Below, in pieces: positions 5,285 to 58,003 of a DNA stretch of 64,000 bases. The number at the start of each line of letters is the position of its first letter. Position 1 is the stretch's first letter. The notes under the pieces are model-generated. The model saw only the letters and a list, made by a program, of their open reading frames with translations, was not told the origin of the DNA and made no database searches. Origin of the DNA: a virus (taxonomy: Duplodnaviria > Caudoviricetes); the IMG/VR virus record IMGVR_UViG_3300031420_000495, positions 64,001-128,000 of that record, one strand, 5' to 3'. Both the position numbers and the translations under genes were made by a program.

Positions 5285-8200
5285 ATGGCAAATAAGAACG
5301 CGCTGAACAAGAATAGCCTGTACGTTCAGAGTCTCGTGGATTTCATTCTCGATACGAAGCCGTATCACGTGAAGCTGACGGAGATTGTCGAAGAGTACCG
5401 ATTCTTCGACGATGTCAAGGTCAAGATTGACGAACGCTTCTCGTCGAAGATGAAGATCGATTCGACCTGGATGTACAACTATTTCTCTTCAGCAAATCCA
5501 ATGTTCAGGACGATGCCGGCTCACGCGCTGACATCTCCGACATTCCGTGCTGAAACCCGTATCGTTGGCAAGGACGAGAACACTGACCTGGCATTGGTGC
5601 CATACGTCTATTCGAAGAAAGCATTCGACGGTGTTGGTGTCAATGCTGTGTACGTGCGTCACAAGGATTTCACCGAAGCCCTGACAGAATCGGCGGACTA
5701 TTTCCAGAGTCACGGGTCATTCCAATTTCAGATCAAGCAAACGAAGAACGCGAATGGCGACCTCGATCCGCTCTGGTCCTCGACGCCCGATGATGACCTG
5801 ATTACGGAAGCCCGTCGCACGACCCGTGCCAACGCGCTGGACCGTAACAACCCGAACAGCGCGATCAACCGCATCTCAGGTTTCTTGCTGGAAATCAATG
5901 CAGCTGTCAAGTCGATTGGCGGACACGCTGACGTTCAACGAGAACTGAATGATCTTTTCGCCATCGTGAACAACAACGATCTGCCGCAGAGCTATGAAGC
6001 ACTGCTGGCTTGGTTGGCGATTCCGAATGACCGTGGTATCCTGGTTCCGCTCGATGCACCAAAGGATCGTGAATACTACGAGCAACGTTTTTCACACTAC
6101 AGTTCGCCATTGTTCTTCGGCATGTTCACCGACCTCGGTGTCCGTGAAAGCGGCCGGATCGAGTATGCGAACGGGCAAAGTGCTGGCATCCGTGTCACGA
6201 ACCTGAAAGTTACCACCGGTAAAGAAATCGAAGAGTGGACATTCGTTGGCACAGACATTCCTGGTTTGTACCGGGTCAATGGATCATCGAGCGGATTCAT
6301 CGGGTTCGTTTCGCCTGGCGATTCGTTTGATAACGGACGCGTCTCATTCAACACTTCGCCGGTTGGTGACTTTGTCCCAGGCGACACGTTGTCGATCACA
6401 CCGACTCGCAAGATCGTTATTGGCGCTGATGCACCACTGGAAACCTGGAACATCATCAAGGTCAATCCGATCGCACACGATCGTCCACAGTTTACCTCGG
6501 CTCGCTTTGGCCACATCGAAGATTTGTCCGGAAACATCGGAGGCGTATCGCTTCTCGACCCGACACTTCCAACTGGCGACATCGTTCTGACGTCGCGTGG
6601 CGATGGTATCTTCTTCGACCTGGTAAGCCTGGTCGATCCAACATACACATCAGTTGTCACCGTTGGCGAGAAGTTCAATGACGGACGTCTTGGATTCACC
6701 ATTGTCAAAGGACCAACAGATTTTCCGAAGGGCGATCGCTTCTACATTTCCATCGAGAACAATCCAGCTCGTGCAGAGAATCTGGAACTCGGCTTTGGAT
6801 ATGACTTGGACCCGTACGACGATGACACGATCACGAAGTATCCGGACGGAACGAATGTCGGATTCTACTACGACGGTCGCTTCACGGATTACGATCTTAC
6901 CTCGCTGAACCTGAAAATTGCAGAGAACGCTGTGAACGGGCGCAAGTGGCGTCTCCGCGCTCTGCCGGATTACACCCGCCCTATTTCAACGGTCCCTGGT
7001 CTACCAACCCCGGCGGAGGACCTGCGCATTTACTACGCGGCATCTTTCGCTTTGGAATGGTCCGATGACCTGACAAGTTGGAAACCAGCCGAAAAAGATT
7101 TGACCATATCTATTGGGTCATCGTATTCGTCAAGTGTTCATGGCATCAGCTTCACAATTGCAGAAGCATCGCGTCCATTCGTAGCAGTCAATGCACCGGA
7201 CGGTTCTGGTGGACCCCGCATCGAAGGTGGTGACATCTTCAGTTTCGAAGTCGTCAACCCAGCTCCTCGCCTGGTTGAAAGCCCTGTTGGTCTTTCCTCG
7301 ATTCATACGCCTCGCCTGATTATGCACAGCGATTCGTTCTTCGATGTCAAAGAAGCAACATGGACTGTTGCATTCACCGATGCCAATACGTACACTGTGA
7401 CCGGTGTCAATGGCGACACGACCTATGGACCGATCACCGGGAAGATTGCGACAGCTGGACAAGATACGCGAGAAGGTCTCAGCTTCAAGGACCTTGGTTT
7501 GCACTTCACCATCGTACCGACTGGCGGACTTGGTGCTGGCGACAAGTTTGTCTTCCACACATTCGACGAGAAGCCTTCGTATCTGGTGCACGGTTCCGTA
7601 ACAGGATTCACTGAGCCAGCTACTGTTGGAAAGTATTACTGGAATGGCAAGATCGGTTTCAAGATTCGTGCTCCGTACATCACGACCTACGTTGGTGGCC
7701 AGGAAGTTCGCGTTGCATACGGTCAATACAAAGTTCGTGAGGATTGTCCATCGCTCATTTACCGGTTCGTGAAGAACGCAACCGGATACCAGATCACGCG
7801 TTCTGATACTGGAGAAAGCGGATTCGGTTCTGCGACGGTTCCGTACCAGGACAAATACCTGACGATCGATCTGGCCGGCGTCACCGTGCCTGAGTTCCTG
7901 CTGACAGTCGATGCACACGACTATCCACTGTGGAACACGGCCGACGTTGTCATCATCAACCCGAAACTCCGTTCGCGACTCCCTGCGAATGGTGAAGCTG
8001 TCGTCATCGAGAAGACGGAAGAGGGTCGATTCAGCCTGAACCTGGTTCCAGGCACCGCAAATGTTTCGGCTCTGAATCCTGTTACGATTGACCAACGTTT
8101 CATTGATACAAATACGCGCGGTGAGAAACGTGTTCCGCTGGCGCAAACCAGCCCAGAGACCGCTGTGCTCCAGGGTTGGGTGCCACTCACCACGACCAGG

Positions 8201-13008: not shown

Positions 13009-15063
13009 ATGAAAATCAATGGTAGCTTAGTATTTGACGGCTCATCAGCGTCCGAGATTCAGAATCTTCGACTGCAGAAAGTCACTGCCCTTCCAGGCAT
13101 TACCGCAGGCGACGTTGGTCGTCTGATTTACAACAGCAACACAAACATCATCCACGTCGGTACCAACGTAGGCAACGTCCTGTCGTGGGTTCCACTGGCA
13201 ACTGGTGGTGACGCATCCGCGCTGCTCGCTGAAGTTGATCGCATCGAAACCTCGCTCGGTCTTGGCCCTGACGGTTCGTTCGATTCCGGCGCTTTCCATG
13301 AGAACTTCGCTGACGCGACGTCTTATGTTGCGCTCATCAATATGCTTCGCGATATGGCAGAAGCCGCTACGACAGCTGCCACAGCTGAAGCTGCTCGTGC
13401 AACCGCAGCTGAAGGTGCACTGGGTACTCGCGTTGACGGTGTAGCTGCTGATCTGGCAACTGAAACCACTCGTGCAACTGGTGCTGAAACCGCACTGGGT
13501 GGACGTATCGATACCGCGACAGCGGCAATCACATCAGAAACAACTCGTGCAACTGGCGCAGAAGGTGCACTCGGAACCCGCATCGACGGTGTAACTGCCG
13601 CTGCTGCGACTGAACGCACACGTGTTGATACAGCAATTGCTGATGAAACAGCTCGCGCAACCGCAGCTGAAGGCGCAAATGGTACTGCGATTGCAGGTGA
13701 AATCACTCGTGCAACTAATGCTGAAACGGCACTCGGCGATCGTATCGACACAGAAACCGATGCTCGCGAAGCAGACGTCGCAGCACTTGACGGACGTATC
13801 TCGACCGAAGTTGCTGATCGTACCGCGGCTGACGCAGATGCCGCTGCCGCGCTCGCATCTGAAGTTGGGCGTGCAACTGGTGCTGAAACGGCACTCGGTG
13901 CTCGTATCGACACAGAAGCAACTGATCGCGCAACCGCAATCAGCAACCTCCGCACCGAAATCGGTTCGACCATTGCTGGTCTGACCTGGGAAGCACCAGT
14001 TGACTTGATCGCTGCTGATGTTGGTACTGTCGACTTGACTGGTTTGGCAAATGGATACCGCATCGTCGATCTGGCAACCATGGCAATCCGTACGGTAACT
14101 GGAGGCGCACTTGGTGCTCCAGAACCACTGGTTGATGGCGCAGCATTCTTCAATCGCACCAATGACACTGGTTACGTCTTTAACGGTACCGCAGTAGTTC
14201 CATTCTCGGGCGCATCATCGTTCGTAGCCGGTAACGGTCTGGTAATGACCGGTAACCGCGTCGACGTAGTTTCGGCATCGGGTACTATCACTGTTACCGA
14301 AGACAGCGTAGACGTTGCTCAGTCTGTCCTGACTTCGATCAGCGACAACGCTGCAGCAGTTGCAGCAGAGACAAGTCGCGCAACCACCGCTGAAACTGGT
14401 CTTGGCCAGCGTATCACCGACGAAACCGCGGCTCGCGTAGCTGCGCTGGAAGCTGAAGCAACCGCGCGTACAAACGCAATCACTACTGAAACGACCCGTG
14501 CAACTGGCGTAGAAGGCGCACTGCGTACTGACGTCGATGCAGCAACCGCAGCAGTCGCGACCGAAGTAACCAACCGTACTGCAGCCGTTAACGGCGAACG
14601 CGACCGTGCAACCGCAGCTGAAGGCGCACTCGGAACCCGCATCACCAATGAAGTTGGTACTGCAGCAACCAATGCAGCAAACGAGCTTGCTCGCGTTGAA
14701 GGCCTGGTCACCACAGAAGTTGGACGTGCAACCGGTATCGAAGGTACGCTCCGCACTGACCTCGATGCGCTGAGCAGCACTGTTGATGCAAACGCAAGCG
14801 CAGTCTTTGACCGCGTCAGCAAGATGTACTATCTGTACGACTCGCGTGGCGGTACTCAAGGCGATGCTGGTTCGAAAACAACTCACGTTGTTACCCACAA
14901 CATCGGCTGCATGTTCTGTAACGTCACTGTCATCGACGACACCAACAACGTCGTTATTCCAGAATCGATCGTCTTCGATTCGAATGACCAGCTGACGATT
15001 ACCTTCAACACACGAATCTACTGCAAGGCCGTTATCATGGGTCTTGAACCACCAGCAGGTTGA
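13009..15063 (+). CDS. Long coiled-coil fibre protein (tail or head fibre)
   Basis: About 10 copies of E-x-x-RAT-x-(A/V/I)E-x-x-L-x-x-R-I/V-D in two blocks separated by a globular domain. AGGAG RBS; terminator follows. Confidence 0.7.
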   Translation: MKINGSLVFDGSSASEIQNLRLQKVTALPGITAGDVGRLIYNSNTNIIHVGTNVGNVLSWVPLATGGDASALLAEVDRIETSLGLGPDGSFDSGAFHENFADATSYVALINMLRDMAEAATTAATAEAARATAAEGALGTRVDGVAADLATETTRATGAETALGGRIDTATAAITSETTRATGAEGALGTRIDGVTAAAATERTRVDTAIADETARATAAEGANGTAIAGEITRATNAETALGDRIDTETDAREADVAALDGRISTEVADRTAADADAAAALASEVGRATGAETALGARIDTEATDRATAISNLRTEIGSTIAGLTWEAPVDLIAADVGTVDLTGLANGYRIVDLATMAIRTVTGGALGAPEPLVDGAAFFNRTNDTGYVFNGTAVVPFSGASSFVAGNGLVMTGNRVDVVSASGTITVTEDSVDVAQSVLTSISDNAAAVAAETSRATTAETGLGQRITDETAARVAALEAEATARTNAITTETTRATGVEGALRTDVDAATAAVATEVTNRTAAVNGERDRATAAEGALGTRITNEVGTAATNAANELARVEGLVTTEVGRATGIEGTLRTDLDALSSTVDANASAVFDRVSKMYYLYDSRGGTQGDAGSKTTHVVTHNIGCMFCNVTVIDDTNNVVIPESIVFDSNDQLTITFNTRIYCKAVIMGLEPPAG
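13369..14772 (+). repeat. Imperfect intragenic repeats encoding ~18-aa coiled-coil units (boundaries approximate)
   Basis: Near-identical DNA segments such as gctgaaacggcactcgg..cgtatcgacacagaa and gcaaccgcagctgaagg recur within the gene. Confidence 0.8.
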
Positions 15064-15088
15064 TTGACTGAAGTAAGCTAAAAGCTAG

Positions 15089-15121
15089 AGGGTCGGCAAA
15101 TGAATTTGTCGGCCCTTTTTT
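15089..15121 (+). terminator. Intrinsic terminator
   Basis: AGGGTCGGCAAAT-GA-ATTTGTCGGCCCT stem (with G-T pairs) followed by a T run. Confidence 0.85.
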
Positions 15122-52939: not shown

Positions 52940-52964
52940 AAAAAGGGACCTCACGGTCCCTTTT
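52940..52964. terminator. Bidirectional intrinsic terminator
   Basis: AAAAAGGGACC-TCAC-GGTCCCTTTT between convergent genes. Confidence 0.85.
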
Positions 52965-52997: not shown

Positions 52998-53405
52998 TTA
53001 CAGCAGCCGGTTGCAGCGCACCATCTCGTAGTGACAGCGAGTAACGATGTCGATTGAATACGCGGTGACATCGATTTTTTCCCGATGGAAAAACCAATAC
53101 ATTGCGTCCATGCTTGCATGCAAGTCTGCCAGAAGAAATTCTTCGACACCGCGTCTACCGAGCACGCGTTCCTCTCCCTTCTTCCATCGACCGATTTCGT
53201 CCACCAGCATACGTGGAATCGATCCCAGGTCTTTCACTGATTGTTTCAGTTCCCGATGCTTCAGCTCGATCGCTTTCGATACGGCGGGATTCCGGGTTGC
53301 ATACAGCTGTGCCGCTTCGAGTAGAATGTTGACTTGTGACAACATAGTCAACATCGCCCGTTCAGCCTGATTGATCAGGCTCTCGCGCATATCCGTGTCG
53401 TCCAT
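52998..53405 (-). CDS. Hypothetical helical protein
   Basis: GGAGA RBS; TAAATA at 53433-53438. Confidence 0.65.
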   Translation of the reverse strand: MDDTDMRESLINQAERAMLTMLSQVNILLEAAQLYATRNPAVSKAIELKHRELKQSVKDLGSIPRMLVDEIGRWKKGEERVLGRRGVEEFLLADLHASMDAMYWFFHREKIDVTAYSIDIVTRCHYEMVRCNRLL

Positions 53406-53440: not shown

Positions 53441-53605
53441 TTAGTTTCGCGGCCAGAACTTGTGGACGTAGAAGACGATCGTGGCGATGACGATACCCGT
53501 GATGATGATCGACAGGATCGCAGCGACCTTGACGACGGCGAAGAAGATCGCCAACGCAACTGCTGTTGCCAGCAGAGCGTAGAATGTGATTTTCAGCTTT
53601 TCCAT
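53441..53605 (-). CDS. 54-aa hydrophobic membrane protein absent from ORF track
   Basis: Own translation: MEKLKITFYALLATAVALAIFFAVVKVAAILSIIITGIVIATIVFYVHKFWPRN. Starts 3 nt after the MazG-ACP stop. Confidence 0.6.
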   Translation of the reverse strand: MEKLKITFYALLATAVALAIFFAVVKVAAILSIIITGIVIATIVFYVHKFWPRN

Positions 53606-53608
53606 GTT

Positions 53609-54448
53609 TTACCCTTTGTTGTTGAAGCGCGAACGCTCTTGCATCCGTTCCTCGAGTGTCAGGTGCCGGCCAGTGCGTTCGGTGTAGTCCGCGGCCGGAT
53701 CGTAGTGGGTCGTCTGCTCGATGCTGGACTTGCGGCCGATTGCAGTGGCTCGCATTGTATCCATTTCGTGAATGACTTCTTCTTCTTCCTCGGCGCTGTA
53801 TTTGCCGTATTCATCGTCAGGCACACCGAACCGGGTGTTGACGTACGAGATGACGTGCTGCACAGTGAAGAGGCGTTCAGCATCGCGATCCGAGATTTCG
53901 AACTCGAACTCGTCTTCGACGGCCATGCACAGCTCGACCAGGTCCAGCGAGTCGGCGCCGAGGTCTTCCACTAGTCGCGCATCACGCACGACATCGCTTC
54001 GTGCCAGGCCAAGTTGCTCCTGGATGATCTTCATGCATCGTTGCGTGATGTCATGAGATTCGCCAGTCGGTTTGGCAGTTTCGGATGCGGTCTCGTCTTC
54101 TTGGGCCTGTGCTGCGATGCGAGCTTGGTCGCCGCTCTGCACCGTAGCCCACTTCGAGTTCTTGCGTTCGAACTCGGACAGGAACAGTTCCAGCACTTGC
54201 TTCTTGGAAAGTTCCGGATGCGCGTCGACCAGGATGGCCAGTGCACATTGTACCACGTCGGCGACTTCGCCGGACAGCGGTTCCTTCATCACTTTGTGCG
54301 TGATGTAGCCTTGATGGATGTTGACACACTCGGCGAGTTCGCCGACTTCTTCCATCAGCTTGCCCAGCTTGGCGCCGAGTGGTTTGATGTCGGTACCGGA
54401 CAGACGATGGACATCGCCGAATGATTGTGCGAACGTTTGTGTTTTCAT
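53609..54448 (-). CDS. Fusion of MazG-like NTP pyrophosphohydrolase and acyl carrier protein domain
   Basis: MazG: KLMEEVGELAE...EVADVV. ACP: IIQEQLG...LVEDLGADSLDLVELCMAVEDEFEFEISDRDAERLFTVQHVISYV with intact DSL Ser. Confidence 0.85.
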   Translation of the reverse strand: MKTQTFAQSFGDVHRLSGTDIKPLGAKLGKLMEEVGELAECVNIHQGYITHKVMKEPLSGEVADVVQCALAILVDAHPELSKKQVLELFLSEFERKNSKWATVQSGDQARIAAQAQEDETASETAKPTGESHDITQRCMKIIQEQLGLARSDVVRDARLVEDLGADSLDLVELCMAVEDEFEFEISDRDAERLFTVQHVISYVNTRFGVPDDEYGKYSAEEEEEVIHEMDTMRATAIGRKSSIEQTTHYDPAADYTERTGRHLTLEERMQERSRFNNKG

Positions 54449-54684
54449 AGTTGTCGTGTTTTGTTTTGAATGTCGTAGACGACCCGCATCAGTTCATAAT
54501 GCTGGTTGGTTTGAATGTTGTGGATCGTCACTTGATTGCCCTTCAGCTGCAGCAGCATCCAGTGGATCGCGAATACGATCAGCATGATTCCGACGAATCC
54601 GATGACGGCAATGCCGACTCCGGAAATCAGATAGATGACGTACGCGAGCAGTGCTGCGCCGACGGTTGCGGGTATGAATGGCAT
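54445..54684 (-). CDS. Small membrane protein (2 TM)
   Basis: Hydrophobic N-half; TAATG/ATGA coupling. Confidence 0.6.
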   Translation of the reverse strand: MPFIPATVGAALLAYVIYLISGVGIAVIGFVGIMLIVFAIHWMLLQLKGNQVTIHNIQTNQHYELMRVVYDIQNKTRQL

Positions 54685-55695: not shown

Positions 55696-55724
55696 ATTAT
55701 ACCCGCATCACTCCAATATGCACA
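55696..55724 (-). promoter_or_regulatory. Early-type promoter TGTGCA-N17-TATAAT
   Basis: Perfect -10 and 17-nt spacer. Confidence 0.75.
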
Positions 55725-56491: not shown

Positions 56492-58003
56492 TTAGGCGAT
56501 GTTGGCCAGTGCGATACGCTTCCAGATACGTTCTTCACGACCGCTGTTTGCGACTTGCACGATGTTCAGCAGCGAGCGAGTCGTGATTTCGTTGGCCATG
56601 TCGCGGTTCTCGTACAAGAAATCGTAGGCTTTCTGCTTGACTTCCATCGAGACACCCGGAGCAAAATCATCGCTCGGCAAAATCTGACGCATACGCTCGA
56701 ACGTTTCTTCGATCGTCAGCTCGATGTCAGCACGCAGCGAGCGGCTGATCAGCGGTTGCGGGAATTCTTCCGACGACACGTTCGAGATGAAGATCACGCG
56801 GCCTTCGAACAAGAAGCGCTTCGGCAGTCCGCTGTTGTCGGTGCCTTCGACATTCCACGTGATCCAACGATCTTCATCGCTGTCCAGTGCTGCTTTCAGA
56901 ATGTTCGCGCCGACTTCGTTTTTCCACGCTGCATCACAGTCATCGAGCACGACCAGCTTGCGGCGGTTTTCGAACAGCATGCGGAACAGGCCCTTTGCCG
57001 ACGAATAGCCTTTCACATAGTGGTAGTCGCCGTCAAGTTCCGGAGCCAACTGCATGTCGGTCGTGTCCATGGTGTGATACCGTTCTGCCGGAATCTGGAA
57101 CACGGTCTTCATGATCTTGCACCATTCTTTACCGTGGCCAGCTTTCACTTTCAGCGATTTAGGGAAGAGGATCGACTGAATGTGGTGGGCCATTTCGTGC
57201 GGCACGACGATGTCGTAGTATTCTTCCGGATTCTGCACAGCCAGCTTGATGTTGAACTCGTACTTGTTCAGGCCAGTCGTGAAGCGGCCGCCGCAGACGC
57301 GATCGCTCAGTTCTTTCGAAGTGTGCAGGCTCGTGAAGTCGACCTTGCTCCAGGTCAGCTCCAGTTCGTCTTCTTCTTCGTCGTCTTCATCATCTTCCAG
57401 CTCAGGCACGTCTTTCTTTTTCAGAGGCTTGATCGGCGGATGTTCTTTGTAGTATGCTTCAGCTTGACGCTTGCATTCTTTCATGCGACGCAGAATGTTG
57501 TCGGCGACGACTTGTTCTTCCGGCGTCAACGTGTACGCGATCTTCTCTGCTTCTTCAGTCGACAGCAGACCACGTTCTTTGAGTTTTTGTTTGGTGTGGA
57601 AGGTTTTGCCGAGCGAGCCGTCGCCGGTGATAATCAGCGAACGAATGCCGCTGTCAACGTCCGCGACCAGATCGACGCATTCGTCGAGCAGTTCGTAACG
57701 TTCAGCAACCGGCAGCAGATTGTTCGGCTTCAGACGAACACGCTCGCCAGCCACGAACTTCGGCGACGGAGCGAAGTTTGCCGGAGCGCCGACAGCAGGT
57801 TTCTTCGGTTCAGCAGCGGGGACGTTGTCGAAGTCGGTCACGCCGAGTTCAAGAGCACGGGCGCATTCGCCAGTGCGGAGACGTTTGATAACGTACTTGC
57901 GCGAGTTCGGACCGCCTTTGGATGCGATCAGAGTTTCGCCTTCATACTGAGCAGACCAAGTCGAGGTGGCTTCGTCGTAGCAGAGAGTAGCAAGTTTCGT
58001 CAT
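56492..58003 (-). CDS. P-loop (AAA-like) ATPase carrying an inserted SprT-like zinc metalloprotease domain
   Basis: Walker A ITGDGSLGKT; insert with HEMAHH and GHGKEW..IM; ATPase resumes DYHYVKG...Walker B VVLDDCD...ILKAALDS...SR. Confidence 0.8.
   Translation of the reverse strand: MTKLATLCYDEATSTWSAQYEGETLIASKGGPNSRKYVIKRLRTGECARALELGVTDFDNVPAAEPKKPAVGAPANFAPSPKFVAGERVRLKPNNLLPVAERYELLDECVDLVADVDSGIRSLIITGDGSLGKTFHTKQKLKERGLLSTEEAEKIAYTLTPEEQVVADNILRRMKECKRQAEAYYKEHPPIKPLKKKDVPELEDDEDDEEEDELELTWSKVDFTSLHTSKELSDRVCGGRFTTGLNKYEFNIKLAVQNPEEYYDIVVPHEMAHHIQSILFPKSLKVKAGHGKEWCKIMKTVFQIPAERYHTMDTTDMQLAPELDGDYHYVKGYSSAKGLFRMLFENRRKLVVLDDCDAAWKNEVGANILKAALDSDEDRWITWNVEGTDNSGLPKRFLFEGRVIFISNVSSEEFPQPLISRSLRADIELTIEETFERMRQILPSDDFAPGVSMEVKQKAYDFLYENRDMANEITTRSLLNIVQVANSGREERIWKRIALANIA

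Follow-up and report, generated by a model that had tools for sequence, protein, structure and literature searches.

The stretch of DNA analysed here (hereafter the window; 64,000 nucleotides, nt) was taken from the IMG/VR virus record IMGVR_UViG_3300031420_000495 and carries, at 53609-54448 on the minus strand, a gene whose product of 279 amino acids (aa), P0001, is conserved and tripartite. It consists of a MazG-like domain, a linker, an acyl carrier protein (ACP) domain of the AcpP type, an acidic linker and a strongly conserved C-terminal motif, DPAADYTERTGRHLSLEERMQERS, which makes three modules instead of two. Judged from its sequence, this is a new domain architecture, in which two known domains are combined with an uncharacterised C-terminal module, and it belongs to a clade of uncultivated jumbo phages. 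The open reading frame (ORF) is uninterrupted over its 279 codons. The phage DNA originates from phyllosphere (leaf-surface) metagenomes, and the phage was read as the 257-kb IMG/VR record that contains the window and that is ~71% complete (257 of ~375 kb). An identical P0001 sequence is present on five contigs, four of which are ~375 kb, and ~25 homologues were found in total, all of them metagenomic and from independent samples (19 are full-length, with 42-62% identity to P0001). The gene is therefore not an assembly artefact. No near DNA match to the window was found among 50,697 phage records.

The first module, aa 1-105 (54134-54448, minus strand), is predicted to be an all-alpha nucleoside triphosphate (NTP) pyrophosphohydrolase domain, folded as a four-helix bundle. 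It matched the phage family phrog_1247, 'MazG-like pyrophosphatase', with an expectation value (E) of 3.4e-12, and the top three matches of its profile in the PDB were the MazG proteins YpjD (2gta), BcMazG (5ie9) and SSO3215 (1vmg), with E between 0.011 and 0.13. The AlphaFold2 (AF2) model of the domain has a predicted local distance difference test score (pLDDT) of 94, and its 50 best Foldseek and 27 best VIA matches belong solely to the all-alpha NTP pyrophosphohydrolase (NTP-PPase) superfamily (MazG/HisE/DCTPP1). The best fold scores were a template modelling (TM) score of 0.63 for 2gta and VIA Z scores of 9.9 for 1vmg, 9.0 for 5ie9 and 8.9 for 2gta, within a range of 7.2-9.9. Four acidic residues predicted to bind metal, E34, E37, E61 and D64 (ExxE-23 aa-ExxD; 54257-54349, minus strand), are invariant across 20 homologues of the fusion family, are unchanged in 64 stand-alone relatives, and line up with their acidic counterparts in B. 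subtilis YpjD. Their spacing of 23 residues lies within the range of the superfamily motif, ExxE(12-28)ExxD. The gathering cut-off of Pfam MazG (PF03819) was missed (11.3 vs 22 bits, E 0.44), and the domain is thus placed at the superfamily level only and not in the Pfam MazG family. At that level the PHROG, profile, fold and motif evidence agree on a divergent MazG-like NTP pyrophosphohydrolase.

The same picture is given by the wider family of this N-terminal domain. An exhaustive search with its profile through 1.84 billion representatives recovered 491 clusters, almost all metagenomic, most of which are stand-alone proteins of 100-140 aa; one cluster is named by its source 'NTP pyrophosphatase (non-canonical NTP hydrolase)'. 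Sub-threshold matches (E <= 0.01, best 2e-4) to Pfam MazG were obtained for 14 of the 64 stand-alone relatives and to PRA-PH for seven of them, and no further plausible enzyme family was matched by this set. A tandem of MazG-like genes was observed at 5532-5897 and 5965-6309 of IMG/VR record 3300032607_000822 (L009): the first is a 121-aa ORF that looks MazG-like by eye alone, and the second encodes 114 aa and is a member of the N-domain family (44% identity).

The second module (aa 133-208; 53825-54052, minus strand) is the ACP domain. Pfam PF00550 matched aa 140-202 with 39.3 bits against a cut-off of 20.8, the equivalog model TIGR00517 (acyl_carrier) with 88.1 vs 70.45 bits, and NF002148 with 93.3 vs 71 bits, while the family profile reached E ~1e-30 against solved AcpPs in the PDB. 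The domain and E. coli AcpP align over 73 aa without gaps, with S167 opposite Ser36; the codon of S167 (TCG, 53948-53950, minus strand) lies in the GADSLD motif and is the predicted site of 4'-phosphopantetheine attachment. The AF2 model shows the four-helix ACP fold with pLDDT 90-95 over aa 133-208, and Foldseek gave a TM score of 0.93 by target against E. coli AcpP at 53-56% identity (0.89-0.96 for solved AcpPs overall). The closest bacterial AcpPs are beta/gamma-proteobacterial, with 50-61% identity. By sequence and predicted fold, then, the domain is a housekeeping-type AcpP rather than a divergent carrier of the polyketide synthase or nonribosomal peptide synthetase kind. G+C content, both overall and at third codon positions, is the same in the ACP segment as in the remainder of the gene and gives no sign of recent capture. 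A preliminary description of the locus had proposed a MazG domain followed by an intact bacterial-type ACP domain with its phosphopantetheine serine in GADSLD and by a short tail. The second of these assignments holds as it was made and the first at the superfamily level, without reaching the Pfam family; the tail, described there as short, contains a strongly conserved motif of 24 aa and is a module in its own right.

Conservation within the carrier domain is concentrated in one region. Among 20 fused ACP domains with an overall identity of 39-64%, the D-S-L-D sequence (D166-S167-L168-D169) is invariant, and the ten invariant positions in all correspond to AcpP D35, S36, L37, D38, E41, M44, E47, E48, E53 and A59, mostly in recognition helix II (D36, S37, L38, D39, E42, M45, E48, D49, E54 and A60 in the numbering of the fused-ACP alignment, A6). 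AcpP-like domains were also seen C-terminal to several unrelated N-terminal domains in metagenomic proteins (P0025, P0026, P0027, P0028, P0029 and P0030), among them a STAS domain plus ACP (P0028) and a protein on a 336-kb contig (P0029), and C-terminal addition of an ACP may recur among large phages. The AlphaFold Database cluster A0A6F8URL3 (305 aa, 'Acyl carrier protein') aligns to residues 2-207 of the model, across both domains, with a TM score of 0.25 and a root-mean-square deviation of 19; it might be another fusion of a helical domain to an ACP.

The modules are joined by two flexible segments. Linker 1 (aa 106-132; 54053-54133, minus strand) is rich in Ala, Gln and Glu, varies in length and sequence among homologues and has a pLDDT of 60-79; linker 2 (aa 209-247; 53708-53824, minus strand) is acidic (EEEEE), also variable, with a pLDDT of ~50. 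The C-terminal motif that follows (aa 248-274; 53627-53707, minus strand) has the consensus DPAADYTERTGRHLSLxERMQERS over aa 250-273, in which G, R, L, E, R and E are invariant. In a search of the phage's own genome the motif occurred only here, and a role as a shared docking peptide was ruled out by this single occurrence. Co-folding of two copies of the MazG-like domain with the 40-aa C-terminal motif gave a score of 0.00 and a partner pLDDT of ~35, values that speak neither for nor against a contact.

A maximum likelihood (ML) tree of the N-terminal domain, onto which architectures were mapped with domain hidden Markov models, resolved two supported clades. Clade A (support 96/91) has the short C-terminal motif and includes 21 members with the ACP and two, P0023 and P0024, without it; these two also have the motif. 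Clade B (support 95/98) has a longer C-terminal domain of ~80 aa, with the ACP in five members and without it in four. The long domain had no match in Pfam or Atlas. The short motif aligned with both of its ends (HPxGxxQPTGKR ... LxEAxxYWxRHNP) and may, on this alignment, be a version of it with the middle deleted. Well-supported branches of the tree require at least three gains or losses of the ACP. P0024 has core and tail without an ACP in the identical syntenic slot to P0001, and P0016, also in that slot, has the ACP and no tail; the C-terminal motif travels with the MazG core and not with the ACP. What stays constant is thus the MazG-like core; both the ACP and the tail are dispensable, and the core-to-tail linker takes the ACP as a facultative insert. 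The tree of the ACP domain itself (79 columns) is compatible with one acquisition as well as with several. The ACPs of P0018 and P0019 (locus L033) group weakly with bacterial AcpPs, apart from the other fused ACPs (SH-like approximate likelihood ratio test, 83), which could reflect a replaced domain or be an artefact of so short an alignment.

Dispensability raises the question of whether the insertion is near-neutral, that is, an AcpP fragment that landed in a tolerant linker and persists without a specific role. Repeated loss of the ACP and the fast evolution of the fused copies would be expected of such an insert. The ACP has nevertheless been kept in 26 diverged sequences (13 clusters at 50% identity) in both clades, with ten positions invariant, the serine and acidic residues of helix II included, at 39-64% overall identity, and with no stops or frameshifts; on these grounds we regard near-neutral insertion as most improbable. 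Comparison of the fused sequences instead shows the attachment serine and the client-recognition helix II to be under strong constraint in a domain that as a whole is dispensable.

The fused architecture is confined to a jumbo-phage clade that is distantly related to Ralstonia phage RsoM2USA and shares the same gene neighbourhood. None of the isolate phage records covers more than 41% of P0001; among the closest bacterial AcpP loci, matches stay within the ACP-domain query, and the fused form was absent from isolate-genome sources. A supposed distant fusion at L011 was rejected, as the tblastn span of aa 25-216 proved to be two separate ORFs joined by the search. The precomputed Pfam annotation of all homologues lists PP-binding only, and their routine names are 'PP-binding' or 'acyl carrier protein'; since the Pfam threshold is missed by the MazG-like half and PP-binding alone is called, the architecture is invisible to domain databases and routine annotation. 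The literature yielded no paper on a MazG-ACP fusion. The view that no such fusion had been described therefore stands, and a search for the architecture returned this small phage clade, not one that is common and already characterised.

P0001 is embedded in a compact unit of minus-strand genes. Immediately upstream is a gene for a 79-aa protein with two transmembrane segments (54445-54684), to which P0001 is translationally coupled, its ATG overlapping the TGA of the upstream gene (ATGA). This slot holds a gene of 66-79 aa at loci L002, L003, L005, L033 and L116, and in L032, which encodes P0024, the overlapping upstream gene has 150 aa instead. Downstream, a gene for a 54-aa protein with two transmembrane segments (53441-53605) starts 3 nt after the P0001 stop codon and is conserved at 52-59 aa in relatives; it is followed by the last gene of the unit, for a soluble protein of 135 aa (52998-53405), strictly conserved at 133-135 aa. 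No family match was found for the 79-, 54- and 135-aa products (for the 135-aa protein, none in Pfam, PHROG or PADLOC), and PADLOC returned nothing for P0001 or the 79-aa protein either; for the ACP-less P0024 it gave an insignificant Cas11 match (E 0.015). In all relatives examined, ACP-less and tail-less ones among them, the MazG-like gene is followed by the 54-aa and 135-aa genes, whose products may be functional partners of the MazG-like core.

The unit is bounded upstream by a strong terminator (56475-56448) after the SprT-like gene, and a terminator-like hairpin with a 10-bp stem (52941-52964) lies between convergent gene ends at its other side. P0001 had been placed at the distal end of an operon driven by a promoter at 55696-55724 (minus strand) and containing three small membrane proteins. 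The membrane proteins are present (73, 79 and 54 aa), but P0001 is not distal, since the 54-aa and 135-aa genes still precede the terminator at 52941-52964. The putative promoter has a perfect -10 element (TATAAT, 55701-55696) and a weak -35 element (tgtgca, 3/6), and it was absent from the calls of a consensus scan. Among the sequencing runs, none of RNA contained the region. The slot order shared among related contigs runs from the SprT-like gene through a small membrane gene, the MazG-like gene, the 52-59-aa membrane gene and the 133-135-aa gene to a convergent gene, AAA_28, RNase_T, Tpt1 and Cpn10. The SprT-like protein (503 aa; 56492-58003, minus strand) heads the neighbourhood in every related contig (484-503 aa); its sole near-full-length isolate homologue is in RsoM2USA (31.7% over 99%), and the C-terminal 40% of the protein matches many T4-like phages.

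The rest of the phage genome bears on what the carrier domain might carry. One possibility is true carrier chemistry, in which the arm would carry an acyl or aminoacyl group of a phage pathway and the MazG-like domain would supply or remove a nucleotide intermediate, for example where a modified nucleotide or lipid is made by way of an acyl- or aminoacyl-nucleotide. The invariant serine and AcpP-like core fit such a role, and partner enzymes might lie in the 118 kb of the phage outside the 257-kb record. That record contains a single carrier domain, the one in P0001, and a profile search of it, with positive controls working, found no PF01648 (ACPS; phosphopantetheinyl transferase, PPTase), no PF00109 (ketosynthase), no PF00501 (AMP-binding, adenylating enzymes) and no PF00587 (tRNA-synt_2b, the core of class II aminoacyl-tRNA synthetases and of SerRS-like ligases). 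The neighbours of P0001 are small membrane or unassigned proteins and not biosynthetic enzymes, and the ACP is dispensable in positional orthologues. Transfer to a thiol or carboxylate is not known to us for any all-alpha NTP-PPase, and carrier chemistry of this kind appears decidedly unlikely. With no phage partner enzymes in the 257-kb record, the ACP most likely uses the host AcpS and the surface by which ACP clients are recognised.

RelA_SpoT, HD_4 (the hydrolase domain of RelA/SpoT) and canonical MazG likewise had no match in the 257-kb record. A second all-alpha NTP pyrophosphohydrolase of 340 aa is encoded outside the window (L115:1366-2388, minus strand; G000:C1 ~14085-15107). Its C-terminal domain matched PRA-PH/HisE (32.9 bits) and phrog_671, 'nucleotide pyrophosphohydrolase' (7e-22), and generic house-cleaning of deoxynucleoside triphosphates (dNTPs) may already be covered by this protein. 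Its N-terminal ~190 aa gave a weak NOV_C match only, and its interpretation as a SerRS-like ligase was discarded. At ~189.8-192.3 kb of the phage's own genome an HD protein stands beside Thg1 and DHFR (L034:660-1346, 1415-2518 and 3-605, all minus strand); the generic HD match is sub-threshold (20.1 vs 22 bits), and the Thg1 (2e-30) and DHFR (4e-36) matches are solid.

Taken together, these features lead us to favour, tentatively and at somewhat less than an even chance, a modular phage enzyme in which a host-type AcpP has been inserted into the linker behind a MazG-like core as a host-interface module, acting by tethering or by titration. The core would be a small nucleotide pyrophosphohydrolase with an intact metal-binding motif, cleaving some (d)NTP-like nucleotide at its alpha-beta phosphoanhydride bond. 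Ancestrally, a flexible linker and a C-terminal module would have come after this core, with the AcpP domain inserted into that linker in the lineage of this phage as an accessory outside the catalytic machinery. Host AcpS would convert the ACP to the holo form, which, through helix II and the prosthetic arm, would engage host proteins that are ACP clients; the hydrolase would thereby be tethered to a client, or the clients would be titrated. Should P0001 form oligomers, as other MazG-like proteins do, each particle would display several copies of the ACP. An accessory insert whose most conserved parts are the serine and helix II, the generic surface for client recognition, is consistent with docking as well as with a decoy.

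In its simplest form the decoy explanation treats the two domains as unrelated in function: the AcpP look-alike would mainly perturb host lipid metabolism, for instance as a sink, in apo or acyl form, for AcpS, PlsB or Fab enzymes; the MazG part would act on the nucleotide pool independently, and fusion would only co-express and multimerise the two. AcpP-grade similarity with an intact client surface suits this explanation, and Keating, Carey and Cronan reportedly found in 1995 that an excess of apo-ACP is toxic to E. coli because it inhibits glycerol-3-phosphate acyltransferase. P0024 and P0016 show that the modules can be parted in nature. Stand-alone phage ACPs are moreover unlinked to MazG: in 22 ACP-bearing IMG/VR records no member of the MazG-like family lies within 6 kb of the ACP, and Pfam MazG is present in two of the 22, at least 18 kb away, so that there is no general linkage and no sign of an obligatory ACP-MazG pathway. 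On the other hand, the fused ACP sits internally between core and tail and is not appended, it is never a separate neighbouring gene in this family, and its serine is invariant, which a pure apo-decoy would not need. We consider an independent decoy possible, although rather unlikely.

A more specific form of docking has holo-ACP binding the TGS region of host SpoT, where a (p)ppGpp-hydrolysing MazG domain would sit at the alarmone source and blunt the stringent response. The ACP-SpoT interaction has reportedly been described by Battesti and Bouveret in beta/gamma-proteobacteria, the groups from which the nearest bacterial AcpPs come. Of the six ACP positions at which mutation abolishes SpoT binding in E. 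coli (PMC3340395), five are kept in P0001 (L42/L173, M44/M175, F50/F181, I54/I185 and T64/T195; V43 is C174), and fused ACPs show little or no variation at M44 and F50. All ACP clients rely on these helix II residues (PMC3340395), and their retention is thus not specific to SpoT. SpoT binding was lost in a mutant that combined T64A with a 12-residue extension at the C-terminus (PMC3340395), and the ACP of P0001 has a C-terminal extension of 70 aa. Cyanophage MazG, the only phage MazG for which an assay was found in the literature, was shown to be unable to hydrolyse (p)ppGpp (PMC6850273), and a 'stringent-response' label therefore transfers less well to P0001. The N-terminal domain is closest to dNTP house-cleaning enzymes of the YpjD/BcMazG/DCTPP1 type, and the enzyme is kept in ACP-less orthologues. 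Docking on SpoT in this form is, in our judgement, very unlikely. The broader proposal that the AcpP mimic is a plug-in targeting or sensing module, which, once phosphopantetheinylated by host AcpS and perhaps acylated, would dock the hydrolase on an ACP client (SpoT, MukB-type condensins or membrane acyltransferases) or gate the enzyme by acylation, also seems unlikely; if true, it would tie the hold of the phage on the nucleotide or alarmone pool to host fatty-acid status.

Several points weigh against the favoured interpretation, that of an inserted host-interface module. The MazG assignment relies on moderate scores (Foldseek E 0.015, Z of ~9-10 for a helical bundle, and a Pfam score below cut-off). 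The fused ACPs evolve far faster than bacterial AcpPs (branch lengths of 0.3-1.5 vs 0.01-0.1) and may thus have lost most housekeeping interactions. A phage PPTase or an acyl- or aminoacyl-loading enzyme could lie in the 118 kb of the genome outside the 257-kb record. Catalytic activity, modification by AcpS, client engagement and oligomerisation are all predictions from sequence and models. In phages, MazG-like genes and ACP genes are each common as 'auxiliary' genes without a settled function, and here they are joined in one polypeptide. The ACP-less orthologues and the tail-less one provide natural controls that could show the value of an AcpP look-alike to the phage, and they bear on whether viruses exploit the hub role of ACP in lipid synthesis and at SpoT and MukB.

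Comparison with known systems sets P0001 apart on both sides of the fusion. B. subtilis YpjD (2gta), BcMazG (5ie9), SSO3215 of Sulfolobus (1vmg), mammalian DCTPP1/RS21-C6 and the integron-encoded iMazG have in common with its N-terminal domain a four-helix bundle of ~100 aa, the ExxE...ExxD motif in helices 2 and 3 and a conserved Lys in the last helix. Identity to the solved MazG-type relatives is 20-25% only, the P0001 domain forms a separate family of its own, and none of these relatives has an ACP or a C-terminal motif of the P0001 type. The cyanophage MazG and the MazG-like protein of phage S-2L (7ody) belong to the same superfamily, are likewise phage-encoded and are thought to shape the nucleotide pool, but they are of a different family (Z 7.9 for 7ody) and neither has a carrier domain. 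The nearest isolate homologue of the N-terminal domain, gene 476 of the Ralstonia jumbo phage RsoM2USA (AVH85403.1, hypothetical; 32.5% over aa 5-118), encodes a protein of 121 aa with the MazG-like domain only, without the ACP and without the C-terminal motif. The ACP of P0001 and E. coli AcpP (1l0h/1acp) share the DSLD serine, an acidic helix II and the four-helix fold. Bacterial AcpP is a free protein of 8-9 kDa, whereas the P0001 ACP is an internal domain between flexible linkers that, in contrast to bacterial AcpP, is dispensable in orthologues and fast-evolving. Fusion at the N-terminus is tolerated by E. coli ACP, as T18-ACP complements acpP-ts in vivo (PMC3340395). ACP modules have been noted in freshwater jumbophages (PMC13573597), and the stand-alone phage ACPs (phrog_5934; annotated for example in Cronobacter phage GAP32, Burkholderia BCSR5, Ralstonia RP13 and Brevundimonas Bajun) are likewise AcpP-like and come from large phages, but they are separate small genes, whereas the ACP of P0001 is fused.

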